The notes: a model not told the origin generated them from the sequence alone. Shown: positions 20,174 to 36,825, numbered from the stretch's first letter. The stretch: 64,000 nt of DNA from Mycoplasma sp. CAG:776 (GCA_000438195.1 FR903071.1:87394-151393); one strand, 5' to 3'. Program-made: numbers and translations.

Positions 20174-21529
20174 TTAAATTTCATACGGTGTTGAAGATGT
20201 TCCATTTCCACTTTTTATGGTAGCATTACTTGCTATATTGATAACAGGACGAACGCCATGCGTGACATCCACGCTCCAGGAGTCGAGGATGCCACCCGAA
20301 TGCACACGGGACACTTGAGCAGTACTGTTCGTCGCATAAAAGTAAGACGGAGACATAGTCCAATAAGTTTGTCCTGTATGTAGGTAGTAACTTTTATTAC
20401 TTCTTCCGCTTACTCCTCCAGCCATTGCTACTTCGTCTGCTGTAATGAGTCCTACTGGGTTTGTTAATGCTTTATTTCCTCTACTACTTCCACTTACTGT
20501 GTACATATCTTCATTATTCTTACATTTTAAACTTGGGCTTTCATTTATATTTAATCGGATATATCCTCCATAATAAGTTTTAGTTGTTCCTGTCCCTCCT
20601 TGTCCATTACTGGTTGTTTTACTTGTACTTGGCTCTCTATCTCCGCAGAATCCTGCTTCTGTACTTACCTTATCTCCATATCCTTTATTGGCTATATTAG
20701 TTTGATACCAGCTATCCAATGTATTCTTTATTCCACTATTTGTTCCAAGGCCATGTACTTGTCCTATCGTATACATATATCCTACATAAGCATTATTGTT
20801 ATACGTGTTACTGTCTATGGAAAATGTATTTGTTCCTATTTGTGTACCTGCTCCTGTTGTCGCTGTACTTGTTCCATTATAGATTAGTCTTATACTTCCA
20901 TCTCCATTGATCCTTATGATCCTCCAATAATACCCTGCAAACTTGACCCAGTTATTGTCCACTGCCCCTCTAAAGTAATAACTATCTCCCCAATCGTCTT
21001 GGGTTTTATATACTCCTTCGTCTTTTGTTGCTAAACTTCCAAAGTTTGGTGTTCCACTATTGATTTGATTATCTCTTTTAATGGCATCTGCTAATAATAT
21101 AGGTTGTTCATCAAAATACAGATAACATTTACTATTCTTTTTTAAGTTTCCTATTACATGTTCTCCATTAGAATTAGTATATAATACAGAACTGGTATCT
21201 TCATTTACATTATCGATTGTACAATAACTTTCTTCTTCATTTATGACATACCCACTACTTGGCATTTCTTCTATTTCTTTATATGTTCCATTTTCTTCTT
21301 GATACATTGCTATTACTTTAAAATCATATGGCGTATAATTGATTGTTCCATTTATCAAAGGTATACTTTGTGTTGTTCGATATTTTGCCAAACTATTGTT
21401 AGTAATCAATACAAGAAGAAGTATTACTACACAGACAAAACCACATAAAAAATATATTCTTTTTTTATTTGTTTTTAATGTTTCTATTTTCATAAGCCGC
21501 CTGCTTTCTATAATGATGCTAGGCTTCAT
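20174..21529 (-). CDS. Signal-anchored secreted/surface protein, paralog B (likely true start at internal MKIETLK, ~21492)
   Basis: Same conserved N-terminus (KKRIYFLCGFVCVVILLLVLITNNSLAKYR), same C-terminus (GVRPVINIASNATIKSGNGTSSTPYEI) and same central motif as paralog A. Gly/Thr-rich variable core. Confidence 0.7.
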   Translation of the reverse strand: MKPSIIIESRRLMKIETLKTNKKRIYFLCGFVCVVILLLVLITNNSLAKYRTTQSIPLINGTINYTPYDFKVIAMYQEENGTYKEIEEMPSSGYVINEEESYCTIDNVNEDTSSVLYTNSNGEHVIGNLKKNSKCYLYFDEQPILLADAIKRDNQINSGTPNFGSLATKDEGVYKTQDDWGDSYYFRGAVDNNWVKFAGYYWRIIRINGDGSIRLIYNGTSTATTGAGTQIGTNTFSIDSNTYNNNAYVGYMYTIGQVHGLGTNSGIKNTLDSWYQTNIANKGYGDKVSTEAGFCGDREPSTSKTTSNGQGGTGTTKTYYGGYIRLNINESPSLKCKNNEDMYTVSGSSRGNKALTNPVGLITADEVAMAGGVSGRSNKSYYLHTGQTYWTMSPSYFYATNSTAQVSRVHSGGILDSWSVDVTHGVRPVINIASNATIKSGNGTSSTPYEI

Positions 21530-21639: not shown

Positions 21640-22137
21640 ATGAATAAAATTATCTTTTTTAATTTTAATGAGAAAATTGACTTGGTGAAAATTATGATGA
21701 ATTATGGAACAATTTTAAGAGAACTTAGAGAAGAAAAAAACTTATCACAAGCAGATATAGCATTACAACTTAACATTCAAGGTAAGGTTTATAGTCAATA
21801 CGAAACAGAATATACAATTATTCCTATTAAACATTTAATCATTTTGTCTGATTATTTTAATGTTTCTTTAGATTTTATTCTAGGATTTACTAAAATTAAA
21901 CAATATTCTAAAACTTCAAATATTCTTAAATGTAGATTAAAAGAATTTCGTAAAGAACATAAATTAACTCAGGAAAAGCTTGCTCAATTTTTAAATACTA
22001 CTCATTCTGTTATTGCTGATTATGAGAGAAATAGATATTTAATTGCTACACCTTTTCTTTATCAAATATGTAGGAAATATAATATCTCTGCTGATTATCT
22101 TTTGGGTAAAATAGACAATCCTAAATACCTTAAATAA
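21640..22137 (+). CDS. Tandem-HTH XRE-family transcriptional regulator (paralog B)
   Basis: Two XRE HTH units ending ...SADYLLGKI. Divergent from paralog B surface gene. Confidence 0.75.
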   Translation: MNKIIFFNFNEKIDLVKIMMNYGTILRELREEKNLSQADIALQLNIQGKVYSQYETEYTIIPIKHLIILSDYFNVSLDFILGFTKIKQYSKTSNILKCRLKEFRKEHKLTQEKLAQFLNTTHSVIADYERNRYLIATPFLYQICRKYNISADYLLGKIDNPKYLK

Positions 22138-22695: not shown

Positions 22696-23442
22696 TTATT
22701 TTTGCTTTTTTAACTTTATTTCATAAGTGTTTAATAATTCTTTTTCAACATTTCCTTTGTTTATCGTATAGCGATATTCTTCTAATAATAAATTTTCTTC
22801 TGTTTCTTTTTCTTCTAAAGCATAAATACTATTATCTTCAAATTTTGCAAGTATTTGAGTATTTTTATCATAAAAAATAGTTAGTTCTTCCCCATCTATG
22901 CTTTGATATTCTTTTGATTCATCATATATTAAAATATTTTCTAAAAGCATTTTCCCTTTATCATTCCAAACAAAATATTCTTCTTTTTCTTCTTTAATAT
23001 CTGAATAGACACTTATTAATAAATAATCTGTTTCTTTATCTTTCATTATCTTTATGTTTTCTTTATCTATTTTAATATTTTCATTTTGATTTTCAAATAT
23101 CTCATCTATTGTATCTGCTTCAAATTTATCATCAACTTCCATAGATAAAATTTCACGTCCATCTAAATAGAGCGTCAAATCGATTTTGGCATATTTTTTT
23201 TCAAAAGTTACTCGATAATTGCTTTTTAGTTTATGTCTTTTTCCATTTAATTGAATATTATATATTTCACTTAATTCGTTTTCAGTCATATTAGTAGATG
23301 CTTTTTCAATACTTTTGGTTTTTATTATTTCTTGTGCGCCTTTAATATCTTGATGGGTTAATGTATAAATTGTAAGAACTGCTATACCGGCTATAATAAC
23401 AGTTAAGATAATGATACTTAGTTTTTTCATAGAATTCCTCAC
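22696..23442 (-). CDS. Membrane-anchored protein, last gene of the pilin-like operon
   Basis: N-terminal TM (LSIIILTVIIAGIAVLTIYTL). 248 aa, Lys/Glu-rich extracytoplasmic region. Confidence 0.5.
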   Translation of the reverse strand: MRNSMKKLSIIILTVIIAGIAVLTIYTLTHQDIKGAQEIIKTKSIEKASTNMTENELSEIYNIQLNGKRHKLKSNYRVTFEKKYAKIDLTLYLDGREILSMEVDDKFEADTIDEIFENQNENIKIDKENIKIMKDKETDYLLISVYSDIKEEKEEYFVWNDKGKMLLENILIYDESKEYQSIDGEELTIFYDKNTQILAKFEDNSIYALEEKETEENLLLEEYRYTINKGNVEKELLNTYEIKLKKQK

Positions 23443-23506
23443 TTATTTAATATTATATCAACAAAAACCTTTTTTTAAAACAAAAAAGTTACTTTTTATT
23501 AAGTAA

Positions 23507-24502
23507 CTATTTAAATATATTAAATAATTTGGCTTTCCCTGAACTACTGCTATTTAATCTCGAAAAGCCTAAGGCTACTAAAAAATCATCCAATGTTTGT
23601 TCGTGTTCTTTTTTATCATCTAAATATGGTAAATTAAAAAATACTTTACTGTTTGCTTCACGTTCAAAATCATTGATATCTTTATTGGTTAAAACACTTT
23701 TATTTAATACTATTTTTTTATCTTTTAATTTTTCAAAGGCATCTCGATCTTGACGAATTAGTTTATTTAATTTAATTAAGCCTGGTTCGATTAAATATAT
23801 AATATCATTACATAAATTTCCTTGAGTAGAATCATTTAAATCTACTAATATTACCTCAGCTTCTGGATTATTAGCGATATTAAAAGCTAAATCTAAAGAT
23901 GTTGTTGATTTTAAGCTTTTATCATTAAAATACTTGAAGTCTTCTTTATCTACTTCTATTGCTACAACATTATAAGCAACTTCTAAATGTCTTTTTAACA
24001 TATATATAAGAGTGGTAGCTCCTGCATGAGCTGTAACATTTTTAAAGCCTACTATTCTTAATCCTCCACTTCCCGTTCCGGTAAATGTATCATATTCTAA
24101 TACTTCATTATTTGCATTTCCATTTAAATTGTGGTACTGAGCTACATCTTTGTAGGAGTTTGGATTATCAATTAAAAACTTTACAGCATTAATATTACGA
24201 GTAAAATTGTAAATCCCCATTGATACTAATCCTGATAAGTAGCCTCCGCTATTTACCATAGCTGAATCATCTAGTAATAAAATTAATTTGCTAGGATCAA
24301 AATTTACTGATAATTTTTGAATCGTTTTAATATTTTGATAACCTTTAATCGCAGTAATATCAATGATCATTTTATTAAAATAAAAATTTGTAAATATGTT
24401 GGCTAATTCTTCTATTTCATATTCCCCATTAATACTTTTTATTACATCAATGTCTAGTGTTGCTAACATATTTTGATATTTATTTGATACAATAACATTC
24501 AT
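23507..24502 (-). CDS. ParA/MinD-superfamily-like protein with degenerate Walker A (TadZ/CpaE-like?), in the pilin-like operon
   Basis: RIVGFKNVTAHAGATTLIYML...NVVAIEVD resembles a deviant Walker A lacking the Lys. 331 aa. Confidence 0.35.
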   Translation of the reverse strand: MNVIVSNKYQNMLATLDIDVIKSINGEYEIEELANIFTNFYFNKMIIDITAIKGYQNIKTIQKLSVNFDPSKLILLLDDSAMVNSGGYLSGLVSMGIYNFTRNINAVKFLIDNPNSYKDVAQYHNLNGNANNEVLEYDTFTGTGSGGLRIVGFKNVTAHAGATTLIYMLKRHLEVAYNVVAIEVDKEDFKYFNDKSLKSTTSLDLAFNIANNPEAEVILVDLNDSTQGNLCNDIIYLIEPGLIKLNKLIRQDRDAFEKLKDKKIVLNKSVLTNKDINDFEREANSKVFFNLPYLDDKKEHEQTLDDFLVALGFSRLNSSSSGKAKLFNIFK

Positions 24503-24516
24503 GCTATTCCCTCTTT

Positions 24517-25008
24517 CTAATCTCCAATTACATTTTCATATTGTTTATCATCTTGCGCTTGAAAATTGCTTGTTGTTCCTTTAATTGTAAAGCTTGATGT
24601 GTCCCCTATTATTGGTAAATTAAATTTATAAAAAATTGTAATTTGATAATAATTTGTTGTATTAGCTCCTTTATATTTTTTTACACAATAATAATATTTT
24701 TCTCCTTCACGAGCTGGTTCTAATTTAGTACTATTTAAGTCTAATGCACCATATACTCCCGTTTCAGAGTCGCCATTTGGTACACATACACCTTCAACAT
24801 CATATCCAGTATATAATAAATAATTATTTACTAATTCAATAGAGGCATCATTTAACCCTTCATATTTTTCAAACATATTTATTAATTCATTTTTTATTTT
24901 AACTGTTCGGGAATAATTTAAGGTTAATACAATAAATCCCACAAATAGTAAAATAAACAAAATCATTAATTGCAATAACCAAGTTCCACCAATTGTTTGT
25001 CTCATCAT
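24517..25008 (-). CDS. Pseudopilin/TadE-like secreted protein (paralog of 25008..25544)
   Basis: N-terminal MMRQTIGGTWLLQLMILFILLFVGFIVLTLNYSR, then Cys-containing domain. Start overlaps the upstream stop. Confidence 0.45.
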   Translation of the reverse strand: MMRQTIGGTWLLQLMILFILLFVGFIVLTLNYSRTVKIKNELINMFEKYEGLNDASIELVNNYLLYTGYDVEGVCVPNGDSETGVYGALDLNSTKLEPAREGEKYYYCVKKYKGANTTNYYQITIFYKFNLPIIGDTSSFTIKGTTSNFQAQDDKQYENVIGD

Positions 25009-25544
25009 TACACCCCACTACACCATGGGTAGCTATTAGGATCTCCACCCTTATCTACATCACATTCATTTGGTTCATAAATTCTTGCTGTTTCACCATA
25101 TATGCTAAACTCAAATAAATTTCTTATAACAGGTAAATCTAATTGATAGAAAACTTTTACTTGATAGTATAAGGCGTTTGGAAGTTCTGAATTGGAGTTT
25201 GCTCTAATTGCTTTTACACAGAATGCAGGATTTTGATTATCTAGTAATCCTTCTCTATTATATCCTACCCATCCAGTTTCATCATCACTATTACAAACTC
25301 CTGTACTACGATAATTTGCCTCTTTAAAATAATCACTTATTTGTTCTGAAAAATTAAAGCATTTAAAAGCGTCTGGAGTTTGTGAAGTACACACTCCTCC
25401 TTGGTTTTTAATAATATTTAAAATTTCATTTTTAACATTATATGCCTTAGAATAATTAATTGACATACTGATATATCCCGCAAACAGCAAAACAAATACT
25501 ATTACAATGTTAAATAAAGAAAAGCCACCAAATGCTTCTTTCAT
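25008..25544 (-). CDS. Pseudopilin/TadE-like secreted protein
   Basis: N-terminal MKEAFGGFSLFNIVIVFVLLFAGYISMSINYSK (GFSL resembles the prepilin G-F-T-L core, but without Glu+5). 8 Cys. Confidence 0.45.
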   Translation of the reverse strand: MKEAFGGFSLFNIVIVFVLLFAGYISMSINYSKAYNVKNEILNIIKNQGGVCTSQTPDAFKCFNFSEQISDYFKEANYRSTGVCNSDDETGWVGYNREGLLDNQNPAFCVKAIRANSNSELPNALYYQVKVFYQLDLPVIRNLFEFSIYGETARIYEPNECDVDKGGDPNSYPWCSGV

Positions 25545-25557
25545 TTTACCACCTTAA

Positions 25558-25800
25558 TTAACCTTTCCAAGCGCATGTAATATCTTCTTCTTCTCCATTC
25601 TTATTACGATATGTACATCTTACTTCTTTACCATCAGCACTTACATTTTCTTTTAAGCATATGGCTTCATCACATTTCGTATTTTTTGAAAAATTGCTCT
25701 GAATAGATGGCCAAAGAATAGAAAAGAAAAAAAGAGACAGCAAAGCCACTATAATTACAACAATTACGGTTAAATTAAGTTCACCTGTTGCCTCTTTCAT
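25558..25800 (-). CDS. Small pilin-like protein (80 aa) with Cys-rich C-terminal domain
   Basis: MKEATGELNLTVIVVIIVALLSLFFF N-terminus shared with 25829..26080. 4 Cys in the C-terminal 40 aa. Confidence 0.45.
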   Translation of the reverse strand: MKEATGELNLTVIVVIIVALLSLFFFSILWPSIQSNFSKNTKCDEAICLKENVSADGKEVRCTYRNKNGEEEDITCAWKG

Positions 25801-25828
25801 TTCTTATTACCTCCGTTTTTAAATATTA

Positions 25829-26080
25829 TTAATTATCATTTTTTAATAAATCTTTATAATAACTTGAGCAATCTAAATCATCATGTTCTTCTCCTTCTTC
25901 ATCTGTATAATGACAATTTTGATAATTATCATCACATCCTGTTGCCATTGAACAATAAGTACTTGCCTCTATTGATCTTTGAATTCCTGGCCAAACAAAC
26001 GCATAAAAGAATGCAGCTACGGCTGCAATTGCAACTACCGTAACGACTGTCATGTTTAATTCTCCAGTTGCTTCCTTCAT
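25829..26080 (-). CDS. Small pilin-like protein (83 aa) with Cys-rich acidic C-terminal domain
   Basis: MKEATGELNMTVVTVVAIAAVAAFFYAF. Paralog of 25558..25800. Confidence 0.45.
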   Translation of the reverse strand: MKEATGELNMTVVTVVAIAAVAAFFYAFVWPGIQRSIEASTYCSMATGCDDNYQNCHYTDEEGEEHDDLDCSSYYKDLLKNDN

Positions 26081-26230
26081 ATATAAATCCTCCTTTTACT
26101 TTTCTTTTATTATTATAACTAATTTTTGGTAAAATATCAATATCGACATTTATATTTTGTCAAATCTATTTAAAATTGTTGTATTGTTTGTAAATTTTGT
26201 GATATATTTATTTTAAGAAGGATTGATTAT

Positions 26231-26914
26231 ATGCAACAATTACAAATTAAGATATTAGAATTTTTAAAAGGACTCGGAACAATATTACTTTATTTTATTA
26301 TTTCTCTTTTGTGTTCTTATTTTTTTCAAGATTTTTATTATCATGATAATTTTATAATTGCAACTATTTTTCAACTTTTAGTTTATGTTATTATGCTACT
26401 TGTCTTAGGACTCATTTATCATAAACGTCTTATTCAAGATTTTAAAAATTTTAAAAAAGATTATTTGTATATTGCATTTAAAAATTGGATAATTGGATTA
26501 GGTGTTATGTTTATAGCTAATATTTTAATTTCTAGTTTTGTGGGTGGTGTTGCTTCTAATGAAGAAGCTAATCGTACTTTACTTGGAGCTTATCCTATTA
26601 GCAGTATTATTTCAATGGTTTTTTTAGGTCCTCTTATAGAAGAAATTACTTTTCGAGCTAGCTTTAAAAAGGCCTTTTCTAAATGGTATACTTTTGCAAT
26701 TGTAACTGCTCTACTTTTTGGTACTGCTCATATTCAAAGTTTCTTTATTACCTTTGATTTTAGAGAGCTATTATTTTTAATTCCATATAGTTCTTTAGGT
26801 TTCTTTTTTGCTAAAGCTTTTTATGAAACTGATAATATTTATACTTCTTATTTAGCTCATATGTTTCATAATGGTGTGTGTGTTCTGATACTTTTATTAT
26901 TTGGGTGGTTTTAA
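26231..26914 (+). CDS. CPBP-family intramembrane metalloprotease (CAAX protease/Abi)
   Basis: EEITFR, FGTAHIQ and HMFHN motifs. Multi-TM. Confidence 0.8.
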   Translation: MQQLQIKILEFLKGLGTILLYFIISLLCSYFFQDFYYHDNFIIATIFQLLVYVIMLLVLGLIYHKRLIQDFKNFKKDYLYIAFKNWIIGLGVMFIANILISSFVGGVASNEEANRTLLGAYPISSIISMVFLGPLIEEITFRASFKKAFSKWYTFAIVTALLFGTAHIQSFFITFDFRELLFLIPYSSLGFFFAKAFYETDNIYTSYLAHMFHNGVCVLILLLFGWF

Positions 26915-27738
26915 TGGATAAGAAAACACAAATAAAACCTCGTAGAGCTGTTAAAGTTTTATTTTTTCTATTTATTTTTATCTTATTATTATTTTTATAT
27001 GCTCGTTACATTAATACTAAAGGCCTTATTATAAAAGAAACACCCATTGTAGATGAAGAATTAGATTCTGATTATAACGGGTTAAAAATAGTGCAATTTT
27101 CAGATGTTCATTATGGAAGAACTACTTCTAAAAAAGATTTAAAAAATGTGATTGAACAAATTAATTCTTTATATCCTGATATTATAGTTTTTACAGGTGA
27201 TTTGTTTGATTCTGCTTCTATTAGTGATAAAGATGCAGAATTAATGATTCAATATTTAAAAGATTTAGAAGCGCGACTTTTTAAATTCGCTATAATAGGT
27301 GATTATGATAAAAAATATTTAGAAACTTATCAATCCATCTTAAATGAAAGTGATTTTATTTTGTTAGATAATTCTTCTAAATTGGTATATGATAATAATA
27401 GTACTCCTATTAATTTTGTTGGTCTTACTAACACTAATAATATTAATTCTTTATATGATAATTCATACTTTACTATAACTTTTGTTCATCAACCAGATTC
27501 TATAAAAGAAATTAGTGAAAGTAATATTGTTTTAGCTGGCCATTCTCTGGGTGGACAAATAAAAATACCATTTATTGGTGGTATTATTAAAAATAAGGGA
27601 GCTGAAACTTATATTAATGAATACTATTCTGTTGATGGGCAACAGCTTTATATTTCTAATGGAATTGGTACCCAAAACTTTAGTTTTAGATTATTTAATA
27701 AACCATCTATATCTTTATATCGTTTATATAATTATTAA
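26914..27738 (+). CDS. Membrane-anchored metallophosphoesterase (calcineurin-like, YkuE/YaeI-type)
   Basis: Motifs VQFSDVHYG, GDLFD, GHSLGGQ. Start taken at ATG 26914 (the track start at 26878 overlaps the upstream gene). Confidence 0.75.
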   Translation: MDKKTQIKPRRAVKVLFFLFIFILLLFLYARYINTKGLIIKETPIVDEELDSDYNGLKIVQFSDVHYGRTTSKKDLKNVIEQINSLYPDIIVFTGDLFDSASISDKDAELMIQYLKDLEARLFKFAIIGDYDKKYLETYQSILNESDFILLDNSSKLVYDNNSTPINFVGLTNTNNINSLYDNSYFTITFVHQPDSIKEISESNIVLAGHSLGGQIKIPFIGGIIKNKGAETYINEYYSVDGQQLYISNGIGTQNFSFRLFNKPSISLYRLYNY

Positions 27739-29904: not shown

Positions 29905-29991
29905 GCCTGTGTGGCGGAATTGGTAGACGCGCTGGACTCAAAATCCAGTGGTAGCAATATCGTGTCGGTTCGAGTCCGACCACAGGCACCA
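29905..29991 (+). tRNA. tRNA-Leu (anticodon CAA), with encoded CCA
   Basis: 7-bp acceptor stem GCCTGTG/CACAGGC, anticodon loop CTCAAAA, long variable arm, T-loop GGTTCGAGTCC. 87 nt. Confidence 0.9.
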
Positions 29992-30063
29992 GAGGGAAAT
30001 CTGCTCGAACCGAAAAGGAAGAGCTTTCGATAAATGTCAATTCTATAGGGAATTGATTTTTTT

Positions 30064-30360
30064 GTGTTAGAAAGTGAGAAGATTTTCATGTTAAAGGTTG
30101 TAAAACAAGAAATTGAAATGGAAGCAGCTCTTAAAAAGAAGTTAGAATTTATATGTAGTTTCTGTAATATTACTCCCATTATCCAAAATGGAAGTATTAG
30201 AAAGTTAGAACAAACTAACTTAATTTATGTAGAACCTCATAGAATTATCATCAAAAATATTACTTTACTTGCCTTTAATTATGAGAGTAATCTTTATATT
30301 GAAAATTTAAGTAAAAGTATTCCATTAAAAGAATTAGAAAATTTTATTAAAACACTATAA
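30064..30360 (+). CDS. Hypothetical small protein (98 aa) at island edge
   Basis: ORF only. Confidence 0.3.
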   Translation: MLESEKIFMLKVVKQEIEMEAALKKKLEFICSFCNITPIIQNGSIRKLEQTNLIYVEPHRIIIKNITLLAFNYESNLYIENLSKSIPLKELENFIKTL

Positions 30361-30584
30361 AAAAACATGCACATCAATTCCTTATCTCCCATTTTACCTG
30401 GATTTTTTCTAAAAATTAGGAAAGAAAAATTATCATAACTTTACCCATAGACAAAACTAGATGTTTTGTTAAAATAAGTATGCTAGGAAAAAATATAATG
30501 ATTTCCACTTATTTAGATAACACAAACTATTTGTCTTGTGTTATTTTTTTATACTTTAAATGGATAGAAAGGATGATGTGATGA

Positions 30585-32488
<1,904 letters not shown>

Positions 32489-32726
32489 CTCTCCTAAATT
32501 TTTCTTTTTTTCTCATTTTTACAACTTTAAAAATTAAACAGGATATGATGTTTGCACCAGTTAAAAGAACCAACCCTTATTTTATAAGACTTTTTCTTTT
32601 ATTTTACTGGTGCCATTTTATTTTTGCACTTGCAAAAATAGATATAATTATATACAAAGTATATTACCTTTTTTAAAAAAAGCTAGGTAAATACTGATTT
32701 AATTTGTATTACTTTTTTATATAATT

Positions 32727-33173
32727 TTATTTTTTACTTTTCCCACAAACAGCACTCATTGAAATATGAAACTCTTTACAAAATTTATATAGATTGGAAG
32801 TAGAAATACATATAAGACCTTTTTCGTATCTAACAATACATGCTTGTGATACACCTAACAAGTCAGCAATATTTTCTTGAGACAAATTATGTTTTAGTCT
32901 AACTGCTTTCATATTATTACCTAATCTTTCTAGGTTCAATCCTTTATTTATTTTTGTGTTACGTTCATTTGTTAAACCAAGAACATAATCTATACTATAT
33001 TTAAAATAATCTGCATAATCACATAAGTTTTTAAGTGGAATAATGTTAATTCCTAATTCCCATAATGAATATGTAGAACGATTTACTTTTAGAATATTTG
33101 CCATTTTCTCTTGGCTAATGTCATTATCTTCTCTAATATCTTTTAATCTTGAAAAATCTATCATATACTTCAC
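32727..33173 (-). CDS. Tandem-HTH XRE-family regulator (island-encoded)
   Basis: Two XRE HTH units (ISQEKMANILKVNRSTYSLWE; LSQENIADLLGVSQACIVRYE). Confidence 0.7.
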   Translation of the reverse strand: MKYMIDFSRLKDIREDNDISQEKMANILKVNRSTYSLWELGINIIPLKNLCDYADYFKYSIDYVLGLTNERNTKINKGLNLERLGNNMKAVRLKHNLSQENIADLLGVSQACIVRYEKGLICISTSNLYKFCKEFHISMSAVCGKSKK

Positions 33174-33275
33174 CTAGGCTAATTATCGCATTAGGCGAAG
33201 AAAAAACATCAATATTGCTATTTACAGTTATATTTTCTGCTATTTTGTGTTATAATTAATAATTAGAAAGAAGGC

Positions 33276-33635
33276 GTGGAAATGACAAAATATTTATCAT
33301 TAAAAGAAAATGAAGAATTAATTATAGGAATGGATCAAAAGCCAAAAGTAGTTAGAATCAAAAATAAAAATAATAAATTACAAATAAGTGAGATTACTCC
33401 TGAAGAAATAACAGACAATATTGTAATTACAGAATTAAATTTTGATGAATTAAAAAGTTTTGTGTTGTACGAAAGTTATTATCAAGAAGTATCTAACCTT
33501 GATATAGATAAGGAAATAATGCAAAAAAATAATGATATATGTGAATATCATTATAAAAAAATTTATGGTGATAATTATAACGAAGATATATCAAATACTA
33601 AGTTTCAAGTTATTATTACTTTTGGCAAGAAATAG
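33276..33635 (+). CDS. Hypothetical protein (119 aa)
   Basis: ORF divergent from the XRE gene. Confidence 0.35.
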   Translation: MEMTKYLSLKENEELIIGMDQKPKVVRIKNKNNKLQISEITPEEITDNIVITELNFDELKSFVLYESYYQEVSNLDIDKEIMQKNNDICEYHYKKIYGDNYNEDISNTKFQVIITFGKK

Positions 33636-33729
33636 AATTTGAAAAAAGTTAACTCTAATCTTAAAAACAGGAAAATAATTTATAATCTACTTAATAAATT
33701 GCTTATTAAATCTTTATTAATTTGTGTCG

Positions 33730-34332
33730 TTAACTTTTTTGCGTTTCTTTTTTTCCGCAACAATACCGATATGGTCTACCGCTTCCACACGGACATTTCT
33801 TTTTGCCATTTTTCTTTTCTTCATATAAATGTAATTGGTGATTTTTTTTAGCAATTTGCCTATTATAATTGTCAATATCTTCTACAAAATCATATTTTTT
33901 ACATGATGGAATTCTAAAGGTAAAGGTTGTTTTACCATCTGTATTTGAAATTGCAAAATCGCCTAATTGAATAACGTCCATTCCAATAAGAGCATCAGCA
34001 CCATGTATTTCTGGTATTTCTGTAACTTTCACAGAGTTAATAACTACACCATTGGGGACAAGTATATCTACCAAATATACATTTTGGGATACTAAACCAC
34101 CAGCAGTGTGAACTTCAGCTTTTGAAATTGGAATTAAATTGCATTTTTTTGCTATATTTGAACTTATTGCGCTTGTTGTCGCTCCAGTATCCCAAATTCC
34201 TATTCCTGTTACTTCTATAGCATTTGCATTCTTAAAAGAAGAAGAAAATGAAACTTTTGTTAAAAGTACTGGAGTAATTTTTTCATAAGGAACTGTAAAA
34301 GCATGCCTAATTTCTTTTTTCGATTTATCCAT
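33730..34332 (-). CDS. Retropepsin-like aspartic protease domain protein with C-terminal SEC-C zinc-binding motif
   Basis: D-T-G-A active-site motif (GIWDTGATTSAIS) and C-terminal CPCGSGRPYRYCCG. Confidence 0.6.
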   Translation of the reverse strand: MDKSKKEIRHAFTVPYEKITPVLLTKVSFSSSFKNANAIEVTGIGIWDTGATTSAISSNIAKKCNLIPISKAEVHTAGGLVSQNVYLVDILVPNGVVINSVKVTEIPEIHGADALIGMDVIQLGDFAISNTDGKTTFTFRIPSCKKYDFVEDIDNYNRQIAKKNHQLHLYEEKKNGKKKCPCGSGRPYRYCCGKKETQKS

Positions 34333-34569
34333 TTAAAAAATTGCCCTCGTGTGAAAAACCTGAATACTATTTTGATCTTCTTTTTCACATTTCTGTATAA
34401 TAAACGTTCCCATTTCTAATTCAGAGGCATAAGTAATTGCCTTTTGTTCTTCTTTGCTGGCAAATATTACCTCTTGATTAGCTATTACTATATATTGTCC
34501 TTTATATTTTTTTAACAATTCCTTTAAATTGGCTTTAAACCATTTATAGTTTCTATCAACTTCATTCAT
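34333..34569 (-). CDS. Small hypothetical protein (78 aa) translationally coupled to the retropepsin-like gene
   Basis: Stop/start adjacent (34332/34333). Confidence 0.4.
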   Translation of the reverse strand: MNEVDRNYKWFKANLKELLKKYKGQYIVIANQEVIFASKEEQKAITYASELEMGTFIIQKCEKEDQNSIQVFHTRAIF

Positions 34570-34722
34570 AGCAAAAACTCCTTTCTTTTAAGTTAGAAAT
34601 ATATTATACTCTATGATCATTAGTTTTACAATATTAATATATCATATTTTTTTTTTTTTTTAAAGCCAAATGTTTAAACTTTAAAAAATTTTATTATTTT
34701 TTACACTACATCATAATTTTGT

Positions 34723-34800
34723 GTTAAAATATTATTAGATTTGAGATTTATCGACCTATTTTAATCTTAAAGGTTCTAAATAGGCTACTCTCTCGCACCA
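34723..34800 (+). repeat. 78-bp direct repeat, copy 1 (upstream of fic)
   Basis: Near-identical to 36047..36124 (2 mismatches). Ends in ...tctcgcacca. Confidence 0.6.
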
Positions 34801-34953
34801 AATTGAATTTTACTCAAAATTTTGAGTTATTATTGCACAATAATTGTGCAAAAAGCATATTTTTTTTATAAAAATGCACATTATTTCATAGATATTGTGC
34901 GTTTTTCTTTACTTTCTAGACTGAATATAGTAATATATTAAGGAGGTGAGAAA

Positions 34954-36033
34954 ATGGATCCTATAAAAGTTAAAAAATTACCACTTGAATATAAACTAGA
35001 TAAAGAGTTAATGAATTTGATTTCAGAAGCTAATTTAAAATTTGGAGAATACAAATCAAATTTAAAAAACAGTCAATTTGATTCAAGATTTTTTTTAGAC
35101 TCTATTATTTTAAGTGAAAGTTTAAAATCAACACAAATAGAGGGTACTCAAATTTCACAAGATGATATGTATTATTTAAAATATATGCCTAAAACAGATG
35201 ATAATTTAGAAATACAAAACTTAAAAAAGGTAATTGATTTTGCCAAAATGCATTTAAAAGATAATCATAAAATTGATATTAAATTCATTAATGATATTCA
35301 TAAGATATTATTAAATAGTGTTCGTGGAAATGAAAAAGATCCCGGGCATATTAGAACTACTCAAAATTGGATTGGCCCAAAAGGCTGTACGATTGAAGAA
35401 GCAACATTTATTCCGCCTATACCAGAAGAAGTTCCAATTTTGTTAAACAATTTATTTGAATATATGAATGATGCTTATGTTGATCCTATATTTATCAATT
35501 TGGCAATATCTCATTCACAATTTGAAACTATACATGCTTACTGTGATGGTAATGGTAGACTTGGTAGAGCACTCATTCCTGTTCAATTAGCTCTTTTAAC
35601 CGAAGAAGAACCAATTTTATTTTTATCAGAAGTAATTGAATTATATAAGCCTACTTATTATAAACTTTTAAACGAAAGTAGAAAAGGCAATATGTTGGGA
35701 TTTATAAAGTTTTTTTTGCAATGTATAATTGATCAATGCAATAATTATATTGCAAAAATAAATAGAATTAACCAAATTTATAATAAAGATATGGAAAAAA
35801 TTAAAATATTAAAAAGTAATGCTGTATATCGGATTATGCCTGCCATTATGAGACAAATTGTTTTTACAAAAAAAGAAATCGTAGAAGAGTCATCAGTTTC
35901 TAGAAATACTGTGTCTATATTAATAGACAAATTAGTAGAATTAAATATTTTAGAACCAGATTCTAATTATGCTAAGTTAGGTTATAGATACAATGAAATT
36001 TATAATGTCTTTGTGGGGAAAGATATGTCATAA
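34954..36033 (+). CDS. fic: Fic/Doc family protein (class II, with N-terminal inhibitory SxxxEG motif); AMPylase-type
   Basis: Fic motif HAYCDGNGRLGR. N-terminal STQIEG matches the (S/T)xxxE(G/N) inhibitory helix. 359 aa. Confidence 0.85.
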   Translation: MDPIKVKKLPLEYKLDKELMNLISEANLKFGEYKSNLKNSQFDSRFFLDSIILSESLKSTQIEGTQISQDDMYYLKYMPKTDDNLEIQNLKKVIDFAKMHLKDNHKIDIKFINDIHKILLNSVRGNEKDPGHIRTTQNWIGPKGCTIEEATFIPPIPEEVPILLNNLFEYMNDAYVDPIFINLAISHSQFETIHAYCDGNGRLGRALIPVQLALLTEEEPILFLSEVIELYKPTYYKLLNESRKGNMLGFIKFFLQCIIDQCNNYIAKINRINQIYNKDMEKIKILKSNAVYRIMPAIMRQIVFTKKEIVEESSVSRNTVSILIDKLVELNILEPDSNYAKLGYRYNEIYNVFVGKDMS

Positions 36034-36046
36034 AAATTTAAAGTAT

Positions 36047-36124
36047 GTTAAAATATTATTAGATTTGAGATTTATCGACCTATTTTAATCTTAAAGGTTT
36101 TAAATAGGCTACTTTCTCGCACCA
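36047..36124 (+). repeat. 78-bp direct repeat, copy 2 (downstream of fic), running straight into the 25-bp island-boundary repeat
   Basis: See copy 1. Confidence 0.6.
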
Positions 36125-36309
36125 GAGGGAAATAGCCTCGAACTATTCGAATTTTAATATATAGAAATCAATCGAAATGATTGATTTTTATCGTTATTAT
36201 CTAATGTTTTTCTTGATTATTTAAATAAATTAAGTTACAGTATACATTTTTATTTATTAATGAAAAAGACCAATTGTAGCAGTTGGTCTAATCGATAAAA
36301 TATAGTTTG

Positions 36310-36825
36310 TTATTTATTTCTTTTTACAAATATTATTCCTAATATTATAGTTATTGTTATAACTATAATTGGGGCAAATCTAAAGAATATCCATTCAAAT
36401 GAATGCCATATCGTTCCAATAACAGTCCATTCAGCATCATTGTAATCCCATGATTGATATGGACTATTTAATATTATGAATAAAATAAATAATAATATTA
36501 AAAATACATCAGCAATTATTAATGTATTAATCATTAGTTTTCTCTTTTGTTTTCGTTTCATTGATAATTGTTCATTTATAACTTCTAATTTTTCGGATAT
36601 TACTTGTAAGTCATTTTTTTCTTTTTCCTTGATGTTCTCACCTAGAATTTCACTAACCGGTGTTTCAAAAATTGTTGATATAGTTATTAACATTTCCGCA
36701 TCTGGAACAGATAAGCCTGACTCCCATTTTGAAATTGTTTGTCTAACAACATTTAATTTAATACTTAACTCTTCTTGGGAAAGTCCTTTTTGTTTTCTTA
36801 ATGCTTTTAAATTATCTTTTAACAT
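36310..36825 (-). CDS. XRE-family HTH protein with C-terminal transmembrane segments
   Basis: N-terminal HTH (LSQEELSIKLNVVRQTISKWESG), then 2 TMs. Terminator hairpin 36267..36289. Confidence 0.6.
   Translation of the reverse strand: MLKDNLKALRKQKGLSQEELSIKLNVVRQTISKWESGLSVPDAEMLITISTIFETPVSEILGENIKEKEKNDLQVISEKLEVINEQLSMKRKQKRKLMINTLIIADVFLILLFILFIILNSPYQSWDYNDAEWTVIGTIWHSFEWIFFRFAPIIVITITIILGIIFVKRNK

Follow-up and report, generated by a model that had tools for sequence, protein, structure and literature searches.

We analysed a stretch of 64,000 nucleotides from Mycoplasma sp. CAG:776 (GCA_000438195.1 FR903071.1:87394-151393; referred to as the window, with positions counted from its first letter), in which six minus-strand genes at positions 22696-26080 encode four pilin-like proteins, a protein resembling TadZ/CpaE and a membrane-anchored protein. 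A first-pass annotation of this DNA had read the six genes as an operon and as a candidate for an incomplete or unconventional Tad-like system. All six open reading frames (ORFs) were confirmed at these coordinates; they run in the same direction and are tightly spaced, with intergenic gaps of 28, 13, about 0, 14 and 64 nt from the first to the last gene, and a direct reading of the DNA finds a Shine-Dalgarno-like GGAGG or GGTGG in front of every one of them. Ahead of the first gene, TTGATA-17-TATAAT on the minus strand (26112..26140) came out of a consensus scan of the region as its top sigma-70-like site (11/12 matches), and the ribosome-binding site AAAGGAGG is found 8 nt ahead of the ATG at 26080. 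Judged by its sequence, the site at 26140-26112 would act as a promoter, and the six genes form one operon.

The first two genes encode small pilin-like proteins of 83 aa (25829..26080), in which the leader MKEATG is followed by a hydrophobic helix (~25 residues, closing with W-P) and by a C-terminal tail with four Cys, and of 80 aa (25558..25800), the latter being a paralogue of the former. They are followed by the gene of a TadE/TadF-sized protein of 178 aa (25008..25544; leader MKEAFGG, a hydrophobic helix, a conserved NYSK and six Cys) and by that of its paralogue (24517..25005), which measures 162 aa from the second of two tandem ATGs and 163 aa from the first one at 25008. The stop/start overlap that had been noted for these two genes amounts to one base and exists only with the first ATG, whereas the second ATG at 25005, which is favoured because of the family N-terminus MRQTIGGTWLLQ (MRQTIGG consensus), leaves no overlap. 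The fifth gene codes for the TadZ/CpaE-like protein of 331 aa (23507..24502) and the last one for a Lys/Glu-rich protein with an N-terminal membrane anchor (22696..23430). The ORF of the latter spans 248 aa from a GTG at 23442, and its start is most likely the ATG at 23430 (MKKLSII..., 244 aa), four codons in, where its orthologues start as well.

The two paralogue pairs had been recognised by their N-termini, which are correctly quoted, and profile alignment with hhalign joins small with small (99.9% probability, E 3e-33) and large with large (99.9% probability, E 4e-37). In all four proteins a leader M-K/R-E-x-x-G of 6-7 residues leads directly into 20-25 hydrophobic residues, the arrangement being that of type IV pilins with their short Gly-ended leader and hydrophobic helix of ~20 residues. 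The same leader type is kept across 158 small and 161 large homologues from 86 related loci, and also across 31 homologues of a DUF5411 protein that is encoded in related clusters (see below). While 86 of the 158 small homologues start exactly with MKEATGELNMTV, the large ones start with M[KR]E[AS][IV]GG[TVI][WS]L[FT][QN] and the DUF5411 homologues with MKE[TS][YF]WGYWL. The short Gly leader is hence common to three otherwise unrelated cluster families, and the quoted N-termini are a family property and not a product of chance. Cleavage probably occurs after the conserved Gly. Conservation is concentrated in the N-terminal ~35 residues, with 69% against 29% in the remainder for the small family (151 homologues) and 55% against 35% for the large one, and a well-conserved N-terminus with a variable remainder is the typical pattern of type IV pilins. 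Cys pairs are conserved as well (C84 and C109 are invariant), which suggests extracytoplasmic, disulfide-bonded domains. The model of the 178-aa protein combines a 44-residue N-terminal helix with a 4-stranded sheet and gave no significant fold match to any pilin. Finally, the gene order small-small-large-large-Z (~80, ~80, ~170 and ~165 aa, TadZ-like) parallels the flp-tadE-tadE-tadZ order of the canonical Tad loci in sister genomes.

For the 331-aa protein, an AF2 model built from 23 homologues (pLDDT 76) comprises a flavodoxin/receiver-like domain (residues 1-116), a disordered linker (117-146) and a P-loop-NTPase/ParA/MinD-like domain (149-310), and a Foldseek search with this model led to the SIMIBI class and to nothing narrower. 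At the level of the fold, the atypical receiver fused to a ParA/MinD-type domain that distinguishes TadZ/CpaE is present, and the likeness to TadZ/CpaE put forward in the first-pass annotation is thereby supported by the model. The Walker A motif reads T-A-H-A-G-A-T-T without a lysine and does not conform to the deviant KGGxGK[ST] type. The AHAGATT described earlier is hence present, but its description as degenerate is misleading, as a lysine-less motif is found in every full-length representative examined: 79 of 84 aligned full-length representatives carry (I/V)IG(F/I/V)KN(V/I/L)T-x-(H/G/S)AG(A/S/T)T(T/S)L, and 0/84 have a lysine in the P-loop or at the signature position of KGGxGK[ST]. The canonical TadZ of the sister genomes reads SAKGGVGKT. 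The lysine-less Walker A is thus family-wide and not the outcome of local decay. In the receiver-like domain, the acidic pair after strand 1 is missing and S-N is read from the sequence instead. Because the P-loop lysine is replaced throughout the family, the protein is most likely a nucleotide-independent or non-hydrolysing hub for docking or positioning and not an ATPase.

The 331-aa family is large, with more than 6,000 matches in a 90% cluster database, all of them "hypothetical" and from metagenome-assembled genomes (MAGs) of Bacilli, and with 562 representative clusters at 50% identity. The GTDB collection of one genome per species holds 455 stretches that match the protein, and its closest relatives are found in "uncultured Tenericutes UMGS1172" (98%) and Ca. 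Caccenecus avistercoris (91%; Bacilli incertae sedis). Among uncultured gut Bacilli with low G+C, the system is conserved in hundreds of species, whose MAGs are labelled Bacilli, "Tenericutes" or "Mycoplasma sp.".

Comparison of 83 loci separated two groups, namely group A with 43 loci, in which the 331-aa homologues are 60-66% identical to the protein of the window, and group B with 40 loci (78-98%), to which the window belongs. In group A, the two small genes, the two large genes and the 331-aa gene form a block that closes a longer cluster of genes with the same orientation. Upstream DNA of at least 3.8 kb was available for 36 group-A loci, and in 34 of them this block lies directly downstream of a module with a CpaF-like ATPase. 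The order of such a complete cluster is giant Cys-rich secreted proteins, DUF5411 protein, CpaB/RcpC-like protein, T2SSE ATPase, two polytopic membrane proteins, the block and a T4SS_pilin-like gene. We refer to the part ahead of the block as module 1 and to the part that is retained in the window as module 2. Within module 1, the DUF5411 protein (PF17424, E 2e-57) is encoded beside the ATPase, the CpaB/RcpC-like protein matches TIGR03177 with an E of 8e-7 that is below the cutoff, and PF16976 weakly, and the ATPase matches PF00437 (E 7e-28), its closest solved relatives being CpaF (2e-18), then FlaI and VirB11. The polytopic proteins measure ~298 and ~262 aa, and the block follows after the second, TadC-like one. 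Additional loci that were reached via the ATPase carry the same module 1; the block follows in L084, L085, L086 and L088, whereas the L087 contig runs out at the start of the first block gene and that of L089 200 nt past the TadC-like gene.

At the other end of the block, a two-transmembrane T4SS_pilin-like gene (PF18895, E 5e-8, L001:11057-11449) stands directly after the 331-aa gene in L001 and 41 other group-A loci. This gene also matches weakly a pilin-like family of Mycoplasma integrative and conjugative elements and is sometimes present in two copies (L084). In the clade of the window, its position is taken by the unrelated 248-aa anchored protein, homologues of which were found only in 37 group-B loci, even by jackhmmer. 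The ideas that the latter might correspond to the CpaB-like protein or to a downstream gene of group A were rejected, since hhalign and jackhmmer were both negative. It is clade-specific and evolves fast, and it would rather be a membrane-anchored accessory.

With respect to the giant secreted proteins, which measure ~950-1,230 aa and open the complete clusters (L001:1-4318; L085:3741-7013; L084:901-4605), no Pfam domain was recognised, and their C-termini have a Cys-dense module in common (…C..CP..C…KCVGGGC.LD.NAGFLATYRT.SLN.PFP…). They may represent adhesins or cargo. In two metagenomic contigs (L087:1-9959 and L088:1-9955) the genes for the giant protein, the DUF5411 protein and the RcpC-like protein are duplicated in tandem before the ATPase.

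The relation between the two arrangements can be read from the flanking genes. Divergently from the operon, the window encodes an Rce1-like CPBP intramembrane protease (26231-26914, plus strand; PF02517, E 1e-13) and a metallophosphoesterase (26878-27738, plus strand; PF00149), and the two together mark the chromosomal slot. In L046, L050, L057, L085 and L089, the same pair directly adjoins the complete cluster at its first gene, and it flanks the block in all group-B loci with an upstream flank, the window included. Since the same slot holds complete and motor-less clusters, the arrangement of the window is best read as the loss or removal of the ~9 kb 5' half, that is module 1, from an ancestrally complete cluster. 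Another, unrelated unlinking is seen within group A, where in L051 and L062 module 2 lies next to ftsY and no module 1 is found nearby. As this lineage is also unlinked, module 2 is separable from module 1. At these two loci, a canonical GFTLVE-type type IV pilin is encoded ~2 kb upstream, by ftsY/ylxM (L062:6372-6815 and L051:6156-6617), so that an A24 prepilin peptidase is to be expected somewhere in those genomes.

The question arises whether module 2 is still functional where its motor is missing. Omega was estimated by the Nei-Gojobori method against 20 group-B orthologues and ranged from 0.01 to 0.11 for the 331-aa gene, 0.04 to 0.29 for the 178-aa gene, 0.07 to 0.38 for the 163-aa gene, 0.02 to 0.77 for the two small genes (80-aa gene, 0.02 to 0.51) and 0.14 to 0.77 for the 248-aa gene, these values being rough as dS is near saturation (about 1). 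It is below 1 for all six genes, and the median for the 331-aa gene at comparable dN is practically the same within group B (0.087) as within group A (0.085). Relaxed constraint is thus not indicated, and the module is functional in the motor-less clade. As module 2 stays under strong purifying selection, it presumably relies on machinery from another part of the genome.

From our point of view, the six genes are probably, although by no means securely, the subunit and organiser half of a very divergent Tad-like (type IVc-like) filament system that has become detached from its motor. The suspicion of an incomplete or unconventional Tad-like system is largely borne out: in the relatives the block comes after module 1 with its CpaF-like ATPase and its polytopic and CpaB-like proteins, the 331-aa protein has the two domains of TadZ/CpaE at the level of the fold, and motor, platform and peptidase are missing from the window. 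In this system, transcription of the operon would start from the promoter at 26140-26112, and the four pilin-like proteins would be inserted into the membrane by their N-terminal helices (~22-25 residues) with the disulfide-containing C-termini facing outward. A peptidase encoded elsewhere would cut the leader after the conserved Gly. In analogy to Tad, the ~80-aa proteins could be Flp-sized major subunits that polymerise via their N-terminal helices as the body of the filament, while the 178- and 163-aa proteins could act as TadE/TadF-like minor subunits that prime or cap it. The lysine-less TadZ-like hub, according to its modelled fold, might recruit or position the assembly machine, and the energy would be provided by a CpaF-type ATPase and its TadB/C-like partners, which are encoded adjacently in the relatives and would have to act in trans here. 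The 248-aa protein could serve as a clade-specific membrane-anchored accessory.

Several observations weigh against this interpretation. In searches of Pfam and NCBIfam with hidden Markov models (HMMs), none of the six operon proteins scored above threshold, neither with the models named in the first-pass annotation (TadE PF07811, Flp PF04964 and TIGR02532) nor with any unrelated family. At E<=1, the 83- and 80-aa proteins gave no match to Flp PF04964 and lack its G/xxxxEY motif, the 178- and 163-aa proteins gave none to PF07811 or PF13400 (TadE/F/G), and the N-methylation models TIGR02532 and PF07963 matched none of the four. A canonical GFTLxE or Flp G-xxxx-EY motif was not found in the window, just as had been stated before. 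The Glu at +5 is absent, with E or D at +1 after the Gly in the small proteins and N or Q at +5 or +6 in the large ones, and the leader carries no net positive charge. When compared by hhalign with the canonical proteins of the sister genomes, no signal was obtained for Flp (probability <6%), TadE (<7%) or TadZ, and profiles of the 178-aa and 331-aa families found nothing meaningful, and for the former no pilin, among PDB sequences. The archaeal Pilin_N model PF07790, which has a gathering threshold of 25.2 bits, matched the two small proteins with 15.3 bits (E 0.039) and 13.8 bits (E 0.11), and a CbiA/ParA match of the 331-aa protein (E 0.045) also fell below threshold; these and other weak matches in Pfam and NCBIfam (among them DUF2140, PssE and CcdA) were discarded. 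The resemblance to pilins that had been proposed thus stands with respect to genomic context, N-terminal signature and model topology, from which the pilin identity is drawn, but not with respect to HMM or fold matches, none of which was significant.

The silence of the HMMs is not due to the sensitivity of the tool or to the AT-rich genomes, because the same tool recognises the canonical Tad of sister genomes throughout. In L026, for example, it detected Flp PF04964 (1.4e-5), TadE (2e-12), a ParA-type protein (4e-14), T2SSE (5e-60) and T2SSF twice.

Also the missing motor speaks against the proposed filament system. As had been noted, the window contains no secretion ATPase, platform protein or prepilin peptidase: tblastn with the ATPases of the relatives found no ATPase in the 64 kb, the family HMMs of group A found neither an ATPase nor a platform protein, DUF5411 or any other module-1 gene even at E<=10, no T2SSF (PF00482) platform protein was detected, and a scan of all ORFs for the A24 peptidase motif GxGD[VILMAF][KR] combined with membrane composition was negative. 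The A24 motif was likewise not found in the ~10 kb around the 86 loci, module-1 genes occur in 0/40 group-B loci within +/-10 kb, and no relocated module 1 turned up in five ATPase-anchored look-ups, for which the matches most divergent from the known complete clusters had been picked. To this can be added the roughness of the omega values. In the relatives, the polytopic proteins gave no match to PF00482 at E<=1 and at most 6% in hhalign against canonical TadB/C; the hhalign comparisons for these proteins and for the ATPase are uninformative, as the alignments were contaminated by overlapping recruitment.

One could imagine that these deviations define a distinct and so far unnamed branch of type IV filaments specific to gut Firmicutes, in which the non-canonical leader (M-K-E-x-x-G, no Glu+5) stays uncleaved or is processed by a non-A24 enzyme, TadZ is an obligate pseudo-ATPase and the subunit module works detached from, or even without, a dedicated ATPase, as in the clade of the window. 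We regard this as rather unlikely, and it would be a matter of speculation to name the CPBP/Rce1-like intramembrane protease as one candidate processor in such a branch.

A further question is which machinery would assemble the subunits. In twelve sister genomes (L020, L021, L022, L026, L027, L030-L033, L035, L036 and L043), a canonical Tad locus is encoded in full just beyond obg, some 3 kb downstream (e.g. L026:13671-18539), with an Flp containing GQALVEY, two TadE, a TadZ with KGGVGKT, a 481-aa CpaF, TadB and TadC. Two Tad-type gene sets that look unrelated are thus neighbours in these genomes. Neither obg nor the canonical locus is present in the window, because the window and its closest relatives have been rearranged, and at least obg must lie elsewhere in the genome. 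With complete, Pfam-detected Tad loci at hand in 12 loci of the same clade, and with no relocated module 1 seen in the look-ups, the orphan subunits and the TadZ-like protein might be assembled in trans by a canonical Tad or ComG machinery and not by a relocated module 1. However, the canonical locus owns its Flp, TadE and TadZ, which have no detectable similarity to the window proteins, and many loci of the clade (e.g. L013-L015 and L040) lack it in their ~10 kb of downstream sequence. Moreover, cross-system assembly of pilins usually requires compatible N-termini, and here they differ (GQALVEY versus GELNMTV). Such a swap of motors is in our opinion improbable.

Alternatively, the operon could be a repurposed remnant, in which non-polymerising, anchored surface proteins are combined with a cytoplasmic scaffold formed by the 331-aa pseudo-ATPase and no filament is made at all. 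This would be in line with the lack of motor, platform and peptidase in the 64 kb and within +/-10 kb of 40 related loci, with the clade-specific 248-aa protein in place of the T4SS_pilin-like gene, and with a 331-aa protein that cannot be a conventional ATPase. On the other hand, constraint on the 331-aa gene equals that in the complete clusters (omega 0.087 versus 0.085), the pilin-type pattern of conserved N-terminus and variable C-terminus has been kept, and the joint retention of all five components is hard to explain if the filament function is gone. We consider this possibility doubtful, and to about the same degree as the previous one.

Far less probable is the reading that the genes belong to an apparatus for conjugation or type IV secretion on a mobile element and not to an adhesive pilus. 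It could be invoked from the PF18895 gene after the 331-aa gene of the complete clusters (E 5e-8), from the similar scores of their ATPase against the models for VirB11 (3e-33) and conjugal TadA (2e-30), both below cutoff, from a weak CD1107-like match in an upstream gene and from a VirB4-like gene ~9 kb away in L003. Yet VirB4, VirD4 or a relaxase was not found inside any cluster, the clusters occupy a conserved chromosomal slot between housekeeping genes in many species, the closest solved relative of the ATPase is CpaF, and tblastn with the 331-aa protein yielded 0 matches in 72,556 plasmids or 50,697 phages, upon which a mobile-element origin was rejected. The gene in L003 (GCA_023663235.1; L003:19884-20999) encodes a TraC/VirB4-like ATPase ~9 kb downstream, with a serine recombinase at the other end of the locus, and probably belongs to a separate conjugative element.

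That the four proteins are no pilins at all but ordinary signal-anchored or secreted small proteins beside a ParA-like gene in a superficially Tad-like layout, as the lack of a significant sequence or fold match to any pilin, of Glu+5 and of a nearby peptidase could be taken to mean, is hardly credible given the recurrent association with a CpaF-like ATPase and a CpaB-like protein (34/36 informative loci), the same leader in three unrelated cluster families and a neighbouring gene with TadZ/CpaE architecture.

Among the known systems, Tad/Flp (type IVc; Aggregatibacter tad, Caulobacter cpa and, on the Gram-positive side, Bifidobacterium breve and the Eubacterium rectale locus with the TadZ PDB 3FKQ) serves as the working likeness for the detached filament module that we favour. 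Nevertheless, most of what defines Tad by sequence is missing (Flp, TadE and T2SSF models, Walker A and a local TadV), and the complete clusters add a DUF5411 protein, giant Cys-rich proteins and a T4SS_pilin-like gene, while the motor half is absent from the window. With archaeal type IV pilins (PF07790, class III signal peptides), the small proteins share a short Gly leader, a hydrophobic helix and independence from a Glu at +5, but their leader lacks the usual basic residue at the cleavage site and the ATPase of the relatives is CpaF-like and not FlaI-like. In comparison to ParA/MinD proteins of the SIMIBI class, the 331-aa protein has T-x-H-A-G-[AST]-T-[TS] in place of KGGxGK[ST] and an extra N-terminal pseudo-receiver.

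The system has not been entirely unseen, as a related DUF5411/CpaF cluster was flagged earlier in Clostridia: a "membrane machinery" operon with CpaF, PilC/GspF-like, DUF5411 and internalin-like proteins has been predicted computationally in Roseburia, Ruminococcus and Eubacterium (Miller et al., 2022; PMC9523054), which is the sole earlier notice that we found in the literature. Compared by description, that operon resembles the complete clusters of the relatives in its DUF5411 gene beside a CpaF-family ATPase, its several small unannotatable proteins and its occurrence in gut Firmicutes. It differs in that it contains one 434-aa PilC-like protein and other small families, lists neither a TadZ-like protein nor MKEATG-type subunits and stems from Clostridia instead of Bacilli, and the window itself has no DUF5411 or ATPase gene. 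A precedent, again compared by description, is provided by the uncultured gut Firmicute TANB77, in which CpaB, TadZ/CpaE, TadA and TadB/C are recognisable mainly by structure and are followed by several single-transmembrane proteins of 140-240 aa that were called pilin-like from context only (PMC11680825). Different protein sizes and families, among them a fused TadC-TadB, a 640-aa ATPase and two ParA-like proteins, set it apart from the system described here. The divergent Tad-like pilins of TANB77 were reported to be immunologically active (PMC11680825), and given this report, divergent Tad-like pilins may matter for host interaction.

The hosts of the system are abundant, uncultured and genome-reduced gut Bacilli, the surface biology of which is essentially uncharted. 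The present analysis offers a testable identity for at least six protein families without a Pfam or NCBIfam model and links them to DUF5411, the only annotated piece. It also suggests that a Tad-like machine can diverge until all components but the ATPase escape standard HMMs. For pilus specialists, a TadZ-type hub that lacks the P-loop lysine across its family, and a module of subunits and hub that apparently parted from its motor on two or more occasions but is fully constrained all the same, should be of interest. If it were true that the module works without a dedicated ATPase or with a non-A24 enzyme, the significance would be considerably greater.

Regarding the neighbourhood of the operon, the G+C content of the window is 24-31% and the surroundings consist of ordinary chromosomal genes (FtsW, MurD, LytR, PAP2, LeuRS, ABC transporters and a P-type ATPase). 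The Rce1-like protease at 26231-26914 is the immediate divergent neighbour of complete clusters (in the five loci named above) as well as of motor-less ones. This adjacency may reflect mere synteny or may hint at an unconventional maturation protease; as proof of a role in processing it was set aside, since a flank that simply stayed in place when an internal segment was deleted would account for it just as well.

Downstream of the operon, a 451-aa N-terminally anchored protein without a significant Pfam match is encoded at 20174..21529 on the minus strand. Homologues were found by tblastn in 16 loci of both groups (23-56% identity) and also stand directly downstream of the cluster in complete-cluster relatives, and the protein may represent a distal member of an extended locus or a regulated partner. 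Its gene is paired with a divergently transcribed one for a double helix-turn-helix (HTH) regulator of the Xre/RstR-like type (21640-22137, plus strand). On the other side of the operon, the region 29905-36825 holds a tRNA-Leu(CAA), then genes for a large serine recombinase (30779-32488) and a double-HTH protein, next to which come those for a retropepsin-like aspartyl protease (33730-34332) and a Fic protein (34954-36033), with that of a further HTH protein at the end, and looks like a small element integrated at the tRNA.

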